Source: Escherichia phage p000y. From it: 64,000 nucleotides of DNA. The position numbers and the translations under genes were made by a program. The notes below the pieces were generated by a model. It made no database searches and was not told the DNA's origin. It worked only from the letters and a program-made list of their open reading frames with translations. The stretch lies in the sequence record MK047718.1. The stretch is one strand, 5' to 3'. Shown here in pieces: positions 30,895-37,443 of this stretch (positions are counted from its first letter, which is position 1; each line of letters opens with the position of its first letter).

Positions 30895-31530
30895 ATGAAA
30901 ACTACACCAATCACTATCGCTATTGACGCAATCGTAAAACAAGCTTCATCTCTTGCCACTATGGCTAAAGTAATTAGTCAAAACCCTGCTCGTTATAATG
31001 CTATTCTAGAAACTCTTCGACGCCCGGGACTTAGTAATTATGAAAGCCGAGTAATTATTACAGGTGTTGGTAAGAACGCTAATATCGCAACTAAAGCTTC
31101 CGAGACTTTTGCTTCACTCGGTATCCCAAGTATGTACTTGAACACTGGGCATTATTCTCATGGTGACGCAGGATTTATTGCACCTAATGATGTATTAGTT
31201 CACATCAGTCGTTCTGGTAAGACTGAAGAAATGATAGGTGTTGCTAAACATCTTCGTATGATTCGTCCTCAGGTTAAACAGATTCTGTTACATTGTAACC
31301 CTGACATTCCACAAGAATACGAAGCTCTTTTTGATTATACGTTCTGTACCGGTATCGCGGTAGAAGTTGACGAGAACTCTTTAGCTCCGACAATGTCTAC
31401 TACATTGTTGTTAGCGCTTATCGATACGTTCGCTATCAACCTTTCGTCTGAACGTGGATTTACCTCTAATGACTTCCTTAAGTTCCATCCAGGCGGTGCA
31501 CTAGGTGCCATGTTACGAGGCGAACAATGA
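30895..31530 (+). CDS. SIS-domain sugar-phosphate isomerase (KdsD/arabinose-5-phosphate isomerase-like)
   Basis: 211 aa; ITGVGKNANIATKASETFASLGIPS...HGDAG...HISRSGKTEE follows the KdsD/GutQ SIS pattern (GxGKS, ATFASxG, HGDxG, SxSGxTxE). Confidence 0.6.
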   Translation: MKTTPITIAIDAIVKQASSLATMAKVISQNPARYNAILETLRRPGLSNYESRVIITGVGKNANIATKASETFASLGIPSMYLNTGHYSHGDAGFIAPNDVLVHISRSGKTEEMIGVAKHLRMIRPQVKQILLHCNPDIPQEYEALFDYTFCTGIAVEVDENSLAPTMSTTLLLALIDTFAINLSSERGFTSNDFLKFHPGGALGAMLRGEQ

Positions 31531-31670
31531 AAGCAATAACAATAGGACTTTTACTATTGATGCTTGTCATGACTATCTACTGGAGCTTAACGGCTCCAGT
31601 AATGATTCCAACACTTGTAATTGGATGGATTATGATTGGACTACAAGCAAAGTATGAATGCTTTAACTAG
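31527..31670 (+). CDS. Small hydrophobic membrane peptide, 47 aa
   Basis: ATGA-coupled to the SIS gene; MKAITIGLLLLMLVMTIYWSLTAPVMIPTLVIGWIMIGL...; below the track cutoff. Confidence 0.4.
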   Translation: MKAITIGLLLLMLVMTIYWSLTAPVMIPTLVIGWIMIGLQAKYECFN

Positions 31671-31711
31671 AATAGTGTACAATACTCCTACTTACCAATG
31701 AGGACTTCAAC

Positions 31712-33397
31712 ATGAAAAAAGCTGTTATTCTTGGTGCTGGATTGGCAACTCGTTTATATCCAATAACGCATCATATTCCTAAGGTGCTTGTTAACTATAA
31801 ACAAGACACTATTCTGAGCAATTTGTATACAATTTATTCTGACCTTGGCGCAGATGAAATTATTGTAGTAGTTCATTCAAAATTTGCTGAAACTGTTCGA
31901 GCTTATTGTGAGCAAGAAGGGTTCAATGTGACTATTCGTACAGTTGATGAAGCATACGGTTCTGCTTATGCTCTTGCTAAATTACACAAAGATTTAGACG
32001 GCCATAACGTAATTGTTAACTGGTGTGATATTATTCCTGACTTTGGTTCATGGTCTTGGAATGTTAACGCAATCTATGTTAAGGGTGATGAATGTCGATA
32101 TAATTTCGATGGTGAAAATATCACTAACGTAGGTTCAACAGGTGGTAATGTTGTAGGAATTTATCAGTTCAAAGACTGGGAATTCTACATGGGTTCTACT
32201 GATGAGGAAATTCACGAATACTGCAAAGGTCGTGATTTCGTAGAATTCCTTTACGGCAGTGCATTCAATAAATCAGAGCTTATGAATCTAATTGATTTAG
32301 GTGATATGCCTAAACTTGAAAAGGCTCATGAAGTTCGTGAACTGAATCGTAGTTTTAATGCAGTTGAAATTGGCGAAGAAACTGTAACTAAATTCGCGTT
32401 AACCGAACAAGGTCGAGCTCTTCAAAAAGATGAGATTTCATGGTATTTGAAAGTGAAATCAGATTCAGTTCCTCAGTTAGTTTCGGTAAATGAAAATAAT
32501 TTTGAAATGGAACGTATTAAAGGTAAGCCGGCATTTGAATATATTAAATCCAAATCAAGTCTTGCTCGTCCACAAATTGTTGATGCAATTTTAGATGCAC
32601 TGAAATTCAGCACGGACACTTATTTTGTAAGTCCTGAAACTGTTCGCCGTGATTTCACTAAAGAGTTCTATACGAAAGTTATTGATCGTTGTGAAAGCAT
32701 TCAGCCATTGATTGATTCATTTGGTAAAATCACACACGTGAACTACACTAAAATTGGACGTCTGAAGCCAATGTTGAAACAAGCTTTAGAACATCTTATT
32801 CGTTATCATAACCGTTCTCAGGGACAGTACTCTGTTATTCATGGTGACCCGAACTTCAGTAATACTATGATTACCGATAACGGCGAAGTCAAGTTTATCG
32901 ACCCTCGTGGATATTTTGGTGAAACCAAGATTTACGGGCCAAAATTATATGATGAAGCTAAAGTGCTTTATGCTGTTTCAGGTTATGATGAATTCAATGC
33001 TAATCCGACCTGGGGACAGTTTACTATTGATGAAACAACTTGTAATGTGACTATTAACATCAATCCATTAGTTTACAAATATGGAAAGATGAGTTCGTTT
33101 AACGAGTATCATCATTTGGCTGTAGCAATTATCTGGATTGCATTAGGTGGTTATTTCAAGAATAATCCACTTAAAGCGGTTGCCGCATATTATAAAGGTA
33201 TGGAACTTCTGACTAAGCAATTACGTAACATGGGCCGTGTACTTCAAGACGGCTCTATTAGTTATGACGTAGCAGAACCTGTAACGGCTACTCTGATTAC
33301 AAAAAATCCTGGTAAATGGGTACTAACTGATAAAGAAACTGGTGTTTCCTATCGTCCAATCGGCGGCGATATCACTCATCAATGGGAACGAATCTAA
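31712..33397 (+). CDS. Bifunctional sugar-1-phosphate nucleotidyltransferase / APH-fold anomeric sugar kinase (MurU-AmgK-like fusion)
   Basis: 561 aa; N-terminal NTase motif AVILGAGLATRL; C-terminal kinase motifs HGDPNFSNTMI and FIDPRGYFG; RBS TGAGGA. Confidence 0.6.
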   Translation: MKKAVILGAGLATRLYPITHHIPKVLVNYKQDTILSNLYTIYSDLGADEIIVVVHSKFAETVRAYCEQEGFNVTIRTVDEAYGSAYALAKLHKDLDGHNVIVNWCDIIPDFGSWSWNVNAIYVKGDECRYNFDGENITNVGSTGGNVVGIYQFKDWEFYMGSTDEEIHEYCKGRDFVEFLYGSAFNKSELMNLIDLGDMPKLEKAHEVRELNRSFNAVEIGEETVTKFALTEQGRALQKDEISWYLKVKSDSVPQLVSVNENNFEMERIKGKPAFEYIKSKSSLARPQIVDAILDALKFSTDTYFVSPETVRRDFTKEFYTKVIDRCESIQPLIDSFGKITHVNYTKIGRLKPMLKQALEHLIRYHNRSQGQYSVIHGDPNFSNTMITDNGEVKFIDPRGYFGETKIYGPKLYDEAKVLYAVSGYDEFNANPTWGQFTIDETTCNVTININPLVYKYGKMSSFNEYHHLAVAIIWIALGGYFKNNPLKAVAAYYKGMELLTKQLRNMGRVLQDGSISYDVAEPVTATLITKNPGKWVLTDKETGVSYRPIGGDITHQWERI

Positions 33398-33783
33398 TGC
33401 ACCGTGTAGAAAACATGCTTAATCTTTGTTTTGATGTCGATGATTGTATAACAGAGTGGAATAACAATCGTGATTACGTGAACTTCAAACCAGACGTCGA
33501 AATGGTGTCTGCCATTAATGCCCTGTATGATGCAGGGCATACCATAACGCTTTACACTGCCCGTGGTATGAAGTCGGTAGGTCCTGGTCGTATAGCAATT
33601 GACATTCTCCCAAGTCTGATTCAGAACTTGGAAAACATTGGTTTGAAGTACCATAATTTGCTAACACATAAACCAGTATATGATTGGATTATCGACGACA
33701 AAGCTATGCGTCCTGACGAATTCAAAGCTCTTATGAATAAAGGCGAATTCGAAACATTTAAATCATATAAACCAAATCTATAA
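33397..33783 (+). CDS. HAD-superfamily phosphatase (KdsC-like), about 128 aa
   Basis: HAD motif I FDVDDCIT, motif II LYTARG, motif IV WIIDDKA; TAATG overlap with the upstream gene. Confidence 0.55.
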   Translation: MHRVENMLNLCFDVDDCITEWNNNRDYVNFKPDVEMVSAINALYDAGHTITLYTARGMKSVGPGRIAIDILPSLIQNLENIGLKYHNLLTHKPVYDWIIDDKAMRPDEFKALMNKGEFETFKSYKPNL

Positions 33784-33829
33784 TAATTTAAGTAAGACCT
33801 GCAAAAACCATCGCATCAATTAACGCGAG

Positions 33830-34999
33830 ATGCAAAAAATGAATACTTTTAAAATCGGAACGAATTTTGATTTAGCTCTTCTTGATAAAATCGTAGAGCT
33901 CAATAAAACCTATCCTAATAGCTTGATAAACGAAGTATATGGCTCTACAAGAGAAATGGCTTTTGTAGCAGCCAGACCTGATTTTAGGCTTCCTGACGTT
34001 GACAAAAAGATGTTAGAAGACTACGTTAAACGTTGTAACGAATTAGGTATTTGCTTTAACTATACACTCAACACGATAAATCCTGGTTCAAAAAGAGAAC
34101 TAGTTGAGTGGAAGAAGAAAGCTATTCAGGATTATGTTCAGTATCTTTGGTCAATAGGCGTATGGCGTATTACTATCGCTAACCCTGTTGTTATGGAAAT
34201 TGTTCGTGAAGTCAATAAAGATATTGAGATTGAAGTTTCAACAATTCTACATGTCGATGCGGTAACTCAAATCAAATACTTACATGACCAATATAACATC
34301 AAAAAGGTCTGTTGCGGAATTCATAAGAACCGTTCAGTTTCTTTCCTGAAGCGTGCAGCAGAGTTTTGCAATAAGAACAATATAATATTTGAAGTTCTTG
34401 TAAATGAGTTCTGTTCTAATGCTGGTAAAGGGTATACAACACATTGTAGTTATCGTGACTCTTGCTATATTTTCCATAGTACTGATGTTACCGCTGATGA
34501 TGCTAAATCCTTAAATGGATATCCTATGCAGCACTGTATTAAAGCTCGTGATACAGACCCATTTAACTGGTTGAGAACTCGTTTTGTTCGTCCTCAAGAT
34601 TTGAAACTTTATAATGATATTGGTATCACTCAATTCAAAGTTTCAGGACGTACAGGTAGCACAGACTACATTTTGAAAGTTCTTGAAGCATACGCTTCTG
34701 AAAAGTTTGAAGGTAATTTGTTAGAACTGTGGAAGCCTTTAGAGACTATTTTCACTCTTGAAAATGAGACTGAGTTTTCACATACAGTAAATATTGAAAC
34801 CTCTTTGTTAGATGGCTTTTTAGAAAAAAGGTGGTTCAGACATCCAGATTTTGATTGTGCTAATGAAATCTGTGGGTCAACGTGTACATATTGTGAAAGG
34901 TATTATAAACGTCAATTATCTAAAAACGGGTTAGCAGAAAACTCCATATCTATTATTGATATAACTAACTCTGATGACGCTTTGAGGTACCCGGAATGA
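33830..34999 (+). CDS. Cys-rich enzyme of unknown function, 389 aa (possibly peptidase-U32-like/Fe-S)
   Basis: Clustered cysteines (VCCGIH, FCSNAGKGYTTHCSYRDSCY, C-terminal CANEICGSTCTYC); family assignment is tentative. Confidence 0.35.
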   Translation: MQKMNTFKIGTNFDLALLDKIVELNKTYPNSLINEVYGSTREMAFVAARPDFRLPDVDKKMLEDYVKRCNELGICFNYTLNTINPGSKRELVEWKKKAIQDYVQYLWSIGVWRITIANPVVMEIVREVNKDIEIEVSTILHVDAVTQIKYLHDQYNIKKVCCGIHKNRSVSFLKRAAEFCNKNNIIFEVLVNEFCSNAGKGYTTHCSYRDSCYIFHSTDVTADDAKSLNGYPMQHCIKARDTDPFNWLRTRFVRPQDLKLYNDIGITQFKVSGRTGSTDYILKVLEAYASEKFEGNLLELWKPLETIFTLENETEFSHTVNIETSLLDGFLEKRWFRHPDFDCANEICGSTCTYCERYYKRQLSKNGLAENSISIIDITNSDDALRYPE

Positions 35000-35235
35000 T
35001 TTCTAGAAAAAGTTTTAATTATAAACTTAACGAAGAGATTTTGACTATGAAACTGAACACTAACGAACAAATTCTTAAAAAGGCCCTTATGGGCCTGTTT
35101 GAAACCAAAGCGGCTAAAGTGATTAAAGAACCTGTTCAATTGGAATACTACACTGATGCATTCCTTCATAGTGTTCTTGGAAGTATAGATTCTGAAGCTT
35201 TACGTTATATCAACATTGTCAAGAAATTCAAATAA
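34996..35235 (+). CDS. Hypothetical protein, 79 aa
   Basis: ATGA-coupled ORF. Confidence 0.35.
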   Translation: MISRKSFNYKLNEEILTMKLNTNEQILKKALMGLFETKAAKVIKEPVQLEYYTDAFLHSVLGSIDSEALRYINIVKKFK

Positions 35236-35258
35236 GCTTTACGAATTGAGTATATAAT
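35236..35258 (+). promoter_or_regulatory. Middle promoter (GCTTTA plus TATAAT) upstream of the hydroxymethylase gene
   Basis: GCTTTA 35236-35241, 11 nt, TATAAT 35253-35258; RBS GAGG before ATG 35278. Confidence 0.5.
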
Positions 35259-35277
35259 AAATTGTATTGAGGTAAAC

Positions 35278-35994
35278 ATGGGAAAACATAACACAATGAA
35301 ATATATCAAAGCCGCAGATTTTCAAACCGCATTTAAAGCAGTCAATCGTGAAATTTTAGAAAACCCGGAATTCGTAACTGATTCTCGTATTGGACGTTGT
35401 AATGAAATTGGGTCTATGACAGTAGTTGTTGACACTCCATCATCATTCAAAATGACCGACCCACGTATTAACCGCATCTCTTATGAATATGCCGAAGACT
35501 TCTGGAAGTTTATGATTTCTGGTGGTACCAACGCAGAAGAAGCGTTTAAGGCATATCCTAATGTCGCTAAATTTATTTCTAAACCAAAATCAGATGTTTT
35601 GCCGGCGAACTTCAACACTTTCTATGGTCCTCGCATTGCGGCCCAATTACCAACTCTTCTAAAAGAACTTAAAGAAAAACCTAACTCTCGAAGAGTTGTG
35701 TTCCAAATTCTAGAAAGTTCTGATCAGGCTTTGCTTGATTCGGACGAAACACTTGAATATCCATGTACTGACTCAGTAACTTATTATATTCGTGATGGTA
35801 AGCTTTATACCCACTGTCATATGCGTTCTCAGAACTGTGCTGTTGTTATGCAGTTGGATTTTTATCTCCAAGGAAAATTACTTCATTATATCGCTAACGA
35901 ATGCGGTGTAGAAGTTGGTGATTATACTCATACCATGGTAAGTGCCCATGTGTTTGAACGTGATTTTGATTATGTTAAAGGATTCCTTGACTAA
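35278..35994 (+). CDS. 42: Thymidylate-synthase-fold pyrimidine hydroxymethylase (gp42 dCMP hydroxymethylase-like, divergent)
   Basis: 238 aa; nucleophile-Cys context YPCTDSVTYYIRD and HMRSQN typical of the TS / dCMP-hydroxymethylase fold; same position as T4 gene 42. Confidence 0.6.
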   Translation: MGKHNTMKYIKAADFQTAFKAVNREILENPEFVTDSRIGRCNEIGSMTVVVDTPSSFKMTDPRINRISYEYAEDFWKFMISGGTNAEEAFKAYPNVAKFISKPKSDVLPANFNTFYGPRIAAQLPTLLKELKEKPNSRRVVFQILESSDQALLDSDETLEYPCTDSVTYYIRDGKLYTHCHMRSQNCAVVMQLDFYLQGKLLHYIANECGVEVGDYTHTMVSAHVFERDFDYVKGFLD

Positions 35995-36893
35995 TGGCTA
36001 TTTTCCGCGTACCAATCTTGAGTATGCGGTCTTATGAAACTGGACAGTATGCTATCCTTAAGGATGGCAACTTCCAACTTCATTTGCACCGTGCTAATCC
36101 GGGTGATGTGATTACATATCCACGTAATGCATCTGATATTAAAGAATGCGAACGTCTTTTCCCAGAATTTAAGTTTGTTCCATTATGGTATAAAGATAAC
36201 GCGTATAACACTCGTAAATATTTCTGGACTGAAAATGAATTTGTGGTTGATTCATTAATTGATTATTATGATTGTGATTTTCTAATCACAGATATCACTG
36301 GTTATGGCGGCGCTTTTGATGTGGAATTCAATTTCAATATCACTGCAGACCCTAATAAACCACGTTTTTATATTGATGAATTCTTAAAAACCGACATGTT
36401 GTCTGTTAATCGTTCACTTCAAACTACTGTGTTGAATGAACGTCAAAAAGAAGTGCTGGTTAACGCAGGTGCAGATGGTAATAAGATTATCGTAACGCAG
36501 AAAGTTATACGTCCTTCCATCATGCAGCGTCTTGTAGGTGATTTGGCTCCTATTCATCTAGATGGTATTTTTCATCCATTTCGAATTAGTGACCCATGTT
36601 ATCGTTTTGAACAAGTGGTTGAATGTGCAATTCAATTAGGTCAACCGCTTTATATAACCGATCCAAATAATAGCTTCGACAGAAATAAGTATCCTGAAGA
36701 AGCGCTGATTCGAATTTTTAAACCAACTAAAACTGAGTACTATCAAATTCTTAAAGGACGTCCGAAAATTCAATATTTCGAAAATCCTGAAGAAGTATTC
36801 CATCCAGGTCTTGGTGAGTTCATCTACTTTAATGCTTTAATTTCTTCGCCGTATAATATACCTAAATACGAAGATGTCGTAATCGAGGAATAA
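35994..36893 (+). CDS. Hypothetical protein, 299 aa, at the position of T4 beta-glucosyltransferase
   Basis: ATGA-coupled to the hydroxymethylase gene; no recognisable motif. Confidence 0.4.
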   Translation: MAIFRVPILSMRSYETGQYAILKDGNFQLHLHRANPGDVITYPRNASDIKECERLFPEFKFVPLWYKDNAYNTRKYFWTENEFVVDSLIDYYDCDFLITDITGYGGAFDVEFNFNITADPNKPRFYIDEFLKTDMLSVNRSLQTTVLNERQKEVLVNAGADGNKIIVTQKVIRPSIMQRLVGDLAPIHLDGIFHPFRISDPCYRFEQVVECAIQLGQPLYITDPNNSFDRNKYPEEALIRIFKPTKTEYYQILKGRPKIQYFENPEEVFHPGLGEFIYFNALISSPYNIPKYEDVVIEE

Positions 36894-36894
36894 A

Positions 36895-37443
36895 ATGGCT
36901 AAAATTATTTTAGTAGATGGCCCGGATAATGCTGGTAAAACAACTTTCATTAATGACATAATGGAAATTAGTGAAAGATATGTAAAGATTGATTTCCCTA
37001 AACGAACAGTTGATGGACGTTTCGATGTTAAGTCTCGAAATGAAGTTGGCTGTTTCGAAACGATGTTGAATTATTTAGACCCTACTAAGATTTATCTGTT
37101 AGACCGTGGATATATTAGTAACTGGGTTTATGGACGTATTCGACAAGATGCGGACTCGATTCTTGACGTTTATGAACAGGACTATGTTCGTCTTTGCCAA
37201 AACCATGATGTGTTCACAATTATTTTAACACGTAACGAAATGACTGAAAGTTTTGAAGACGACCTTATTACTTTGTCTTCATTCGGTTTTAATACAGTCA
37301 TTTCACATTTTGAAGAGTTTGCAATTCATAACAAAATCCAAACGTATCAATTACTTAATCATGATGGTGCTAACAAAGTTATAGGATTTAATGCAAGCGA
37401 ACGTAATTATTTGATTACAGAAATTATCAAATGGGCTCGTTAA
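36895..37443 (+). CDS. P-loop nucleoside/nucleotide kinase-like protein, 182 aa
   Basis: Walker A ILVDGPDNAGKTT, then LLDRGYISNWVYG resembling the dNK/TMPK fold. Confidence 0.5.
   Translation: MAKIILVDGPDNAGKTTFINDIMEISERYVKIDFPKRTVDGRFDVKSRNEVGCFETMLNYLDPTKIYLLDRGYISNWVYGRIRQDADSILDVYEQDYVRLCQNHDVFTIILTRNEMTESFEDDLITLSSFGFNTVISHFEEFAIHNKIQTYQLLNHDGANKVIGFNASERNYLITEIIKWAR

Follow-up and report, generated by a model that had tools for sequence, protein, structure and literature searches.

A U32-family protein encoded in the DNA arabinosylation cassette of Escherichia phage p000y: a candidate oxygen-independent cytosine hydroxylase

We analysed a stretch of 64,000 nucleotides from Escherichia phage p000y, a T4-like Mosigvirus (sequence record MK047718.1; the whole stretch is called the window below), focusing on the plus-strand open reading frame (ORF) at 33830–34999, which begins with ATG and encodes 389 residues. 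This ORF is a real gene, 99.2% identical to RB69ORF050c, and its product is a U32-family protein of the iron–sulfur (Fe–S) type. It lies within a cassette (30895–37443) that shares 99.1% identity with Escherichia phage p000v and about 98% with many RB69-like phages. The gene itself is already known and is widely annotated as a "peptidase" in phage records. Our analysis makes it moderately likely that the protein is instead a hydroxylase that makes 5-hydroxycytosine, acting either on deoxycytidine monophosphate (dCMP) or on DNA.

Results

Family membership and predicted fold

The Pfam Peptidase_U32 domain (PF01136) matches residues 97–289 (34118–34696, plus strand) at 42.2 bits (gathering score, 22.4); the homologues also have precomputed Pfam U32 matches, and the ORF matches PHROG 5757. 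An AlphaFold2 model built with 79 homologues reached a mean predicted local distance difference test (pLDDT) score of 91.8 and a predicted template modelling (TM) score of 0.91. Its top match in the PDB is the U32 protein Mk0906 (5D88; Foldseek E 1.8e-7, target TM 0.69), the only solved U32 structure, and after it come generic triosephosphate isomerase (TIM) barrels only. Mk0906 is a distant reference, since it has 247 residues, is 11% identical, consists of the barrel only and has no assigned function; a sequence search of the PDB with the ORF returned nothing at E up to 1. The first-pass annotation had noted a loose resemblance to the U32 family, and this resemblance is borne out by both the above-threshold Pfam match and the U32-type TIM barrel: the structure prediction that it had proposed as a check gave a confident model whose best match is a U32 protein and not an unrelated fold.

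When the profile of the phage clade was aligned with the four E. coli U32 proteins by hhalign, RlhA came out best (probability 84%, E 7e-6), with an alignment that covers RlhA residues 46–258 only, and the matches to UbiU, UbiV and TrhP were weak or uninformative (TrhP E 0.002). The ORF scored 18.4 bits with the NCBIfam model for UbiU (NF047963) against a cutoff of 440, matched no NCBIfam equivalog and does not have the full-length architecture of RlhA (~650 residues). Judged by sequence, the phage clade is a small, distinct U32 subfamily, because a clade profile search at E up to 1e-30 found only 491 clusters at 50% identity among 1.84 billion representatives.

A conserved cysteine pattern

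The protein has 13 cysteines (residues 69, 75, 161, 162, 180, 195, 206, 212, 236, 343, 348, 352 and 355). Conservation was scored in 121 homologues, down to 47% identity: nine cysteines are invariant (C161, C195, C206, C212, C236, C343, C348, C352 and C355), C180 is present in 118, and C69, C75 and C162 vary. The cysteine pattern is not a product of chance, and the lack of conservation that would have spoken against the first-pass annotation was not found. That annotation had correctly described the CC pair (161–162) and the C-terminal Cx4Cx3Cx2C (343/348/352/355); the middle group is Cx10Cx5C (195/206/212) and not the Cx9Cx5C it had given. C161 and C180 are restricted to the phage clade.

The core cluster, C195-x10-C206-x5-C212-x23-C236 (34412–34537, plus strand), is invariant in all 121 homologues. 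We compared it with the canonical motif expected of Fe–S U32 hydroxylases such as RlhA, TrhP and UbiU/UbiV, four conserved cysteines of the CX6CX15CX3/4C type that ligate a [4Fe-4S] cluster. By hhalign, C206 and C212 pair with RlhA C169 and C176, the first two canonical ligands, via the common "CYIxH"; by MAFFT, C236 pairs with the third ligand (RlhA C192, TrhP C193, UbiU C193). The two methods disagree on the first canonical ligand, to which MAFFT assigns C195 and hhalign C206. The core cluster thus appears to be a variant of the canonical U32 [4Fe-4S] motif in which three positions align with ligands, the set of three depending on the alignment method.

The C-terminal motif, C343-x4-C348-x3-C352-x2-C355 (34856–34894, plus strand), is invariant in the phage clade, is modelled with pLDDT >90 and probably forms a second metal site. 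It also occurs in distant relatives (27–32% identity) associated with non-ribosomal peptide synthetases (NRPS). Such cysteines bind [4Fe-4S] clusters in UbiU and UbiV (PMC6747719), and RlhA has further essential cysteines at its C-terminus (PMC5727448); the phage protein may bind Fe–S clusters as well. A Radical SAM interpretation of the CX3CX2C part, which lies in the C-terminal tail outside the barrel of the model, was also considered; no Radical_SAM match was obtained at E up to 0.1, a search of radical families having been proposed as a check at first pass.

The cassette and the published chemistry of its neighbours

After the gp43 DNA polymerase gene, all on the plus strand, come an arabinose-5-phosphate isomerase with a SIS domain (30895–31530; Pfam/PHROG match), a bifunctional sugar kinase/nucleotidyltransferase resembling AfhE and RB69 gp52:53 (31712–33397; Pfam, PHROG and literature) and a HAD-type phosphatase resembling AfhF and RB69 gp51 (33382–33783; PHROG and literature). 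The U32 gene follows these three directly, which is the position at the end of a sugar cassette that had been noticed at first pass. Next, also on the plus strand, are a 79-residue ORF similar to RB69 ORF049c (34996–35235), a thymidylate-synthase (ThyA) homologue identified as a 5-hydroxy-dCMP synthase dependent on flavin mononucleotide (FMN) and O2 (35278–35994; 99% identity to RB69 ORF048c/gp48), the homologue of RB69 gp46:47, DNA arabinosyltransferase 1 (35994–36893; PHROG 3891, assignment from PMC13326640) and a thymidylate-kinase (Tmk)-like nucleotide kinase homologous to RB69 gp45 (36895–37443; PHROG 761; PMC13326640, Table 1). UvsX follows.

RB69 DNA contains mono- and di-arabinosylated 5-hydroxycytosine (Lee et al., PMC13326640). 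The thymidylate-synthase homologue gp48 makes 5-hydroxy-dCMP, incorporating 18O2 and binding flavin (FMN) (PMC13326640); O2 as the oxygen source was confirmed in vitro by He et al. 2026, as cited in that paper. Together with a deoxynucleoside monophosphate (dNMP) kinase, RB69 gp48 yields 5-hydroxydeoxycytidine in E. coli without gp50 (PMC13326640). The gp48 enzyme requires O2 and so cannot work anaerobically. The RB69 homologue of our U32 gene, RB69p050, is found only in Table 1 of the same paper, as a "sugar or heterocycle reductase", and is never discussed; the discussion there mentions tRNA hydroxylation pathways without tying them to this gene.

The U32 gene is dispensable for the arabinose route

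The kinase/nucleotidyltransferase is present in 368 phage records, 57 of them from Acinetobacter phages, and U32 in 221 records; among those listed, all are phages of Enterobacterales or Shewanella. U32 is missing from Acinetobacter phage DLP2 and the E. coli Dhakavirus Bp7, both of which encode the kinase/nucleotidyltransferase, phosphatase, ThyA homologue, transferase and kinase. No U32 is listed in the described cluster of phage DLP3, which produces the same arabinosyl-5-hydroxycytosine nucleosides as RB69 (PMC13326640). The U32 enzyme is therefore dispensable for the arabinose route, consistent with the first-pass view that such an enzyme has no obvious place in a route to nucleotide-activated arabinose. 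The additional modification step suggested at the same time finds no support in that form: the nucleosides of DLP3 and RB69 are alike, so U32 is accessory and contributes no further group that can be seen when the phage is grown aerobically. The evidence points instead to a second, O2-independent way to the same 5-hydroxyl handle.

Acinetobacter hosts are strict aerobes, and their phages lack U32. We also considered a strict rule by which phages of facultative anaerobes carry U32 and phages of aerobes do not; only half of it holds, as the Acinetobacter phages fit and the Dhakaviruses break it.

Shikimate-pathway genes beside U32

U32 of Klebsiella phage KLB31 is immediately followed by a chorismate mutase gene (Pfam CM_2, 38.5 bits vs 27). 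Such a gene is situated between U32 and the ThyA homologue in the records of 48 phage isolates, which infect Klebsiella, Yersinia, Serratia, Enterobacter, Edwardsiella, Erwinia, Pectobacterium, Providencia and Morganella and also include E. coli phage EcS1. Of the 16 T4-like loci examined, 14 contain it, and the two U32-less cassettes do not. In an unrelated uncultured-phage locus, a 3-deoxy-D-arabino-heptulosonate 7-phosphate (DAHP) synthase stands beside U32 (NCBIfam, 237 bits vs 63 for 3-deoxy-D-manno-octulosonate 8-phosphate synthase). Fusions of DAHP synthase and chorismate mutase adjoin U32 in loci L035, L037, L038, L040 and L049, and stand-alone chorismate mutases in L042, L046 and their relatives; all of these enzymes, the DAHP synthase included, score above the Pfam threshold. 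Among the non-T4-like viral loci, 13 of 37 have a shikimate-pathway gene by U32. Examples of these phage genes are L001:6155-6394, L005:9145-9891, L038:6321-7376 and L042:9119-9442; all those seen adjoin U32.

These neighbours bear on U32 because the enzymes lead to prephenate, the implicated donor for bacterial U32 hydroxylases. Prephenate is genetically required for RlhA, TrhP and UbiU/UbiV (PMC5727448, PMC6599085, PMC10990095) and is the proven oxygen donor for the UbiU/UbiV pathway (PMC10990095). The phage chorismate mutases, DAHP synthases and fusions look like auxiliary metabolic genes that supply prephenate, and by analogy the phage U32 protein would use it.

U32 in uncultured phages and in phages of anaerobes

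U32 proteins that are 45–58% identical and keep all nine cysteines are encoded on unrelated uncultured viral contigs. There, the gene overlaps or abuts homologues of the window arabinosyltransferase (AraGT1-like), Tmk-like kinases and dUTPase/dCTP-deaminase (DCD)-like genes and, in L008 and L031, a TET-associated glycosyltransferase (Pfam TAGT, 33.9 bits vs 27.5). On very large phage-like contigs it is near dCMP deaminase, DNA polymerase III alpha and uracil-DNA glycosylase (UDG)-family genes. No ThyA homologue of the hydroxylase type was found within 8 kb of U32 in the uncultured-phage loci. In L004 (a 466-kb contig) and L006/L007, U32 comes right after dCMP deaminase, among DNA polymerase III alpha, UDG-family, Tmk and single-stranded DNA-binding protein genes, a setting that hints at a pathway to 5-hydroxy-dUMP (hydroxyuracil) rather than to cytosine.

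From four overlapping loci, L008 and L031 included, we rebuilt the 43,970-bp contig IMGVR_UViG_3300045988_074298, which may be incomplete. Its operon consists of a Tmk-like kinase, an AraGT1-like transferase, U32, TAGT, dUTPase/DCD, a polymerase-like protein, a second TAGT-like gene and UDP-galactopyranose mutase. Searches with phmmer and tblastn found no thymidylate-synthase-family gene anywhere on this rebuilt contig, and Pfam found no TET/JBP, 2-oxoglutarate oxygenase or methyltransferase among 25 of its larger ORFs (head, tail and likely spurious ORFs excluded). U32 thus appears to be the one enzyme seen in this phage that could make the hydroxyl acceptor, the glycosyltransferase targets being themselves predicted, and the phage probably carries an undescribed galactofuranosylated hydroxypyrimidine in its DNA.

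In an ecology scan with one genome per species, U32 homologues with 40–51% identity were found on contigs binned with strict anaerobes, among them Erysipelotrichales, Oscillospiraceae, Lachnospiraceae, Romboutsia, Gastranaerophilaceae, Tannerella, Phocaeicola faecalis and a deer-colon Clostridia bin. Several of these contigs have chorismate mutase, kinase/nucleotidyltransferase and transferase genes close by. In hosts of this kind, a hydroxylase that depends on O2 would serve no purpose.

The nearest cellular relatives (L078–L091; Bacillota, Bacteroidales and Desulfobacteraceae; 27–32% identity) lie inside NRPS clusters, one of which includes a DAHP synthase (L090) and another a tandem U32 paralogue (L081). 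They have the same C-terminal four-cysteine motif, with His replacing C212, and are candidate anaerobic hydroxylases of secondary metabolites.

Discussion

Proposed function

We hypothesize that the U32 protein hydroxylates cytosine at C5 without O2, taking the oxygen from host prephenate, while its Fe–S clusters would handle the two electrons as in the mechanism proposed for UbiU/UbiV. It would be the anaerobic twin of the adjacent FMN/O2-dependent 5-hydroxy-dCMP synthase, giving the same product, and 5-hydroxy-dCMP would then be phosphorylated and built into DNA, where the neighbouring transferase would add arabinose. Cytosine C5 chemistry is assigned partly because the best profile match in E. 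coli, RlhA, is needed for C5-hydroxylation of cytidine; two features, the small protein and its kinase, deaminase and dUTPase neighbours, lead us to favour dCMP as the substrate. We infer substrate and product, as we do Fe–S binding and prephenate use; an O2-independent, prephenate-dependent C5 hydroxylase acting specifically at the dCMP level has, in our judgement, a nearly even chance of being correct.

Several observations weigh against this proposal. Neither the query nor any of the 121 clade members fits the pattern E-x-F-x2-G-[SA]-[LIVM]-C-x4-G-x-C-x-[LIVM]-S, which we take to be the classical U32 signature and which was validated on UbiU, RlhA and TrhP as positive controls, all of which fit it; the match had been called imperfect at first pass, and it is indeed so throughout the clade. 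The fourth canonical cysteine position is occupied by R240, an Arg here as in UbiU, which likewise lacks this cysteine. The window and all Mosigviruses have no phage chorismate mutase, so that the phage would rely on host PheA/TyrA and the link to prephenate runs through homology with its relatives; moreover, 24 of the 37 non-T4-like loci have no shikimate-pathway gene in the flanks examined. E. coli Dhakaviruses manage without U32 in a facultatively anaerobic host. No U32 protein has yet been reconstituted in vitro as a hydroxylase (PMC10990095), and the characterised U32 enzymes of nucleic acids act on RNA polymers and not on mononucleotides. Lastly, the recent literature on the pathway, which our searches covered incompletely, might assign U32 another role.

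Alternative explanations

The same O2-independent prephenate chemistry could act on cytosine already present in phage DNA, much as RlhA and TrhP work on RNA polymers and TET enzymes on DNA before TAGT glycosyltransferases, and this version, which we find unlikely but worth keeping in mind, has in its favour that all characterised U32 proteins of nucleic acids are linked to the modification of polynucleotides (PMC5727448, PMC6599085) and that in L008 and L031 U32 occupies the exact TET position beside the TET-associated glycosyltransferase. The protein is, however, a bare 389-residue U32 core without the extra C-terminal domains of RlhA (653 residues) and TrhP, and the genes that recur beside its own encode enzymes acting on nucleotides (Tmk-like kinase, dCMP deaminase, dUTPase/DCD). 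T4-like phages also exclude dCTP, which would keep unmodified cytosine out of their DNA. The proximity of U32 to a flavoenzyme gene could alternatively mean that it is a redox helper, either an Fe–S electron donor that reduces the flavin of the ThyA-like synthase or the "sugar or heterocycle reductase" tentatively listed in Table 1 of PMC13326640, and the Foldseek matches after 5D88 do include methylenetetrahydrofolate reductase, a flavin TIM barrel. These matches have a TM of ~0.39, which is generic barrel similarity, and gp48 with a dNMP kinase does not need gp50 in E. coli. Many U32 loci have no ThyA homologue within 8 kb, the whole rebuilt contig has none, and the chorismate mutase and DAHP synthase neighbours would be left unexplained; a redox helper is improbable on these grounds.

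A little less probable still is an enzyme of the sugar route that modifies arabinose-phosphate or UDP-arabinose. It would fit the position of U32 directly after three sugar-activation genes, its co-occurrence with isomerase and kinase/nucleotidyltransferase genes in several metagenomic loci and the annotation in some phage records, that of phage ChristianSchoenbein among them, which reads "putative enzyme involved in UDP-arabinose biosynthesis". But phages without U32 contain the same arabinosyl-5-hydroxycytosine nucleosides, the isomerase, AfhE and AfhF already account for UDP-arabinose synthesis, and in L008 and L031 U32 goes with a galactofuranose route (UDP-galactopyranose mutase) and not with arabinose, so that it follows the base and not the sugar. 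We regard as very unlikely a hydroxylase of host or phage RNA that tunes translation during infection by tRNA or rRNA modification of the TrhP/RlhA type. T4-like phages do encode tRNAs and RlhA is the best match among the E. coli U32 proteins; against this, in unrelated phages the gene sits within operons for DNA modification and nucleotide metabolism, its reading frame often overlapping those of its neighbours, its product lacks RNA-binding extensions, and RlhA and TrhP are already supplied by the host. A true peptidase or collagenase of the PrtC type is hardly credible: only database names speak for it, whereas hydroxylation is the process with which the characterised U32 proteins of E. coli are associated, and those tested bind Fe–S (PMC6747719, PMC10990095), and nine invariant cysteines and this genomic setting are unlike a protease.

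Comparison with known hydroxylation systems

The proposed cytosine hydroxylase shares with RlhA (YdcP) the U32 domain and the sequence "C-x5/6-C-Y-I-x-H". In the 23S rRNA of E. coli, formation of 5-hydroxycytidine at C2501 depends on RlhA; this is C5-hydroxylation of a cytosine that requires prephenate and Fe–S biogenesis, and C-terminal cysteines are essential (PMC5727448). Unlike the 389-residue phage core, RlhA has 653 residues, associates with 50S precursors and acts on a single RNA residue; the phage protein differs in turn by failing the signature, by the Arg in place of the fourth cysteine, by its compact CX4CX3CX2C tail and by its DNA-modification operon.

The TrhP/TrhO pair, which makes 5-hydroxyuridine at position 34 of tRNA, resembles the arrangement in the window in that a prephenate-dependent U32 protein and an O2-dependent enzyme redundantly make one hydroxylated pyrimidine (PMC6599085). 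Here, U32 and the O2/FMN-dependent ThyA homologue are two genes apart and would share a product. The partner is a flavoenzyme of the thymidylate-synthase fold and not a rhodanese, the proposed target is a DNA precursor and not tRNA, and the sequence similarity to TrhP is weak. The pairing that we propose would likewise mirror that of anaerobic UbiU–UbiV with the O2-dependent UbiI, UbiH and UbiF in ubiquinone synthesis. UbiU and UbiV are U32 Fe–S proteins with conserved cysteine ligands (PMC6747719, PMC10990095); they form a heterodimer that acts on a lipid with the accessory protein UbiT, whereas the window has no U32 paralogue.

With the RB69 gp48/HY126 hydroxylase, the proposed functional equivalent in the same cluster, U32 would have the product in common; the folds are unrelated, and gp48 depends on FMN and O2 (PMC13326640). 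Phage TET/JBP systems with TAGT also place an enzyme that makes a base hydroxyl beside a DNA glycosyltransferase, and U32 stands in that place in L008 and L031, where no TET or methyltransferase was seen among the scanned ORFs of the rebuilt contig. TET enzymes differ in their substrate, 5-methylcytosine in DNA, and in their need for O2, Fe(II) and 2-oxoglutarate.

Significance

The published route to 5-hydroxycytosine in RB69-type phages needs O2, yet their enteric prey live in the anoxic gut. An O2-independent hydroxylase, if confirmed, would close this gap and explain how DNA is protected in the anaerobic gut; from it one could also foresee under which conditions the DNA stays modified and hence resistant to restriction and CRISPR, a point of relevance to phage therapy. 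Prephenate-dependent U32 hydroxylases would extend from RNA and quinones to DNA precursors and viruses, and the phage chorismate mutase and DAHP synthase genes would gain a function. If its substrate is a small soluble nucleotide, the protein would be an attractive model for studying the mechanism and could allow the first in vitro reconstitution of U32/prephenate chemistry.

More broadly, and with a chance that we place clearly short of even, phage U32 proteins may constitute a third way to hydroxylated pyrimidines in viral DNA, one that does without oxygen. Where phages of strict anaerobes have neither a ThyA- nor a TET-like enzyme, U32 would alone hydroxylate the base, would be fed by phage chorismate mutase or DAHP synthase and would provide the acceptor for arabinosyl, galactofuranosyl or other glycosylations, possibly on 5-hydroxyuracil too. 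The uncultured phages of anaerobes are flagged here as probable carriers of undescribed glycosylated bases.

The papers on Thanatos and on the Durham collection do not discuss the U32 gene, and full-text searches found no paper that links U32, prephenate or chorismate mutase to phage hydroxycytosine, within the incomplete coverage of recent work mentioned above. In the literature searched, the functional reading and the recurrent phage modules of U32, chorismate mutase/DAHP synthase and DNA glycosyltransferase appear to be new. What would be new in the enzyme itself is a viral, DNA-directed U32 hydroxylase of the prephenate type whose cluster motif deviates from the canonical one and whose tail carries four additional cysteines.

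Further observations on the cassette

A scan of the cassette for promoters and terminators found sites no more common than in shuffled sequence; a sigma-70-like TTTAAA-16-TATAAT at 33757–33784 on the plus strand, 46 nt upstream of the U32 start, is not significant. The true start of U32 is probably the ATG at 33839 (M4), three codons after the annotated start (MQKM...), since the homologues open with MNxFKLG there and a GAG lies 9 nt upstream.

The 79-residue ORF starts within the U32 stop codon (ATGA), an overlap that hints at coupled translation. This ORF is conserved in Mosigviruses and in phages of Yersinia and Pectobacterium and Serratia phage 92A1, carries the motif "Y.DAF.HS...RHIN..KR", matches no family in Pfam or NCBIfam and may be an accessory subunit of U32. 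It was also considered as a diverged chorismate mutase and rejected: besides the missing Pfam/NCBIfam match, BLASTP against the KLB31 mutase gave E 6.7 and hhalign a probability of 0.4%, and Yersinia phages have both genes.

The kinase/nucleotidyltransferase (561 residues) and the arabinosyltransferase (299 residues) are single intact ORFs in the window, while each is split in the RB69 record AY303349 (L108; 053c/052c and 047c/046c). The intact ORFs agree with the published view that the splits in RB69 are sequencing errors.

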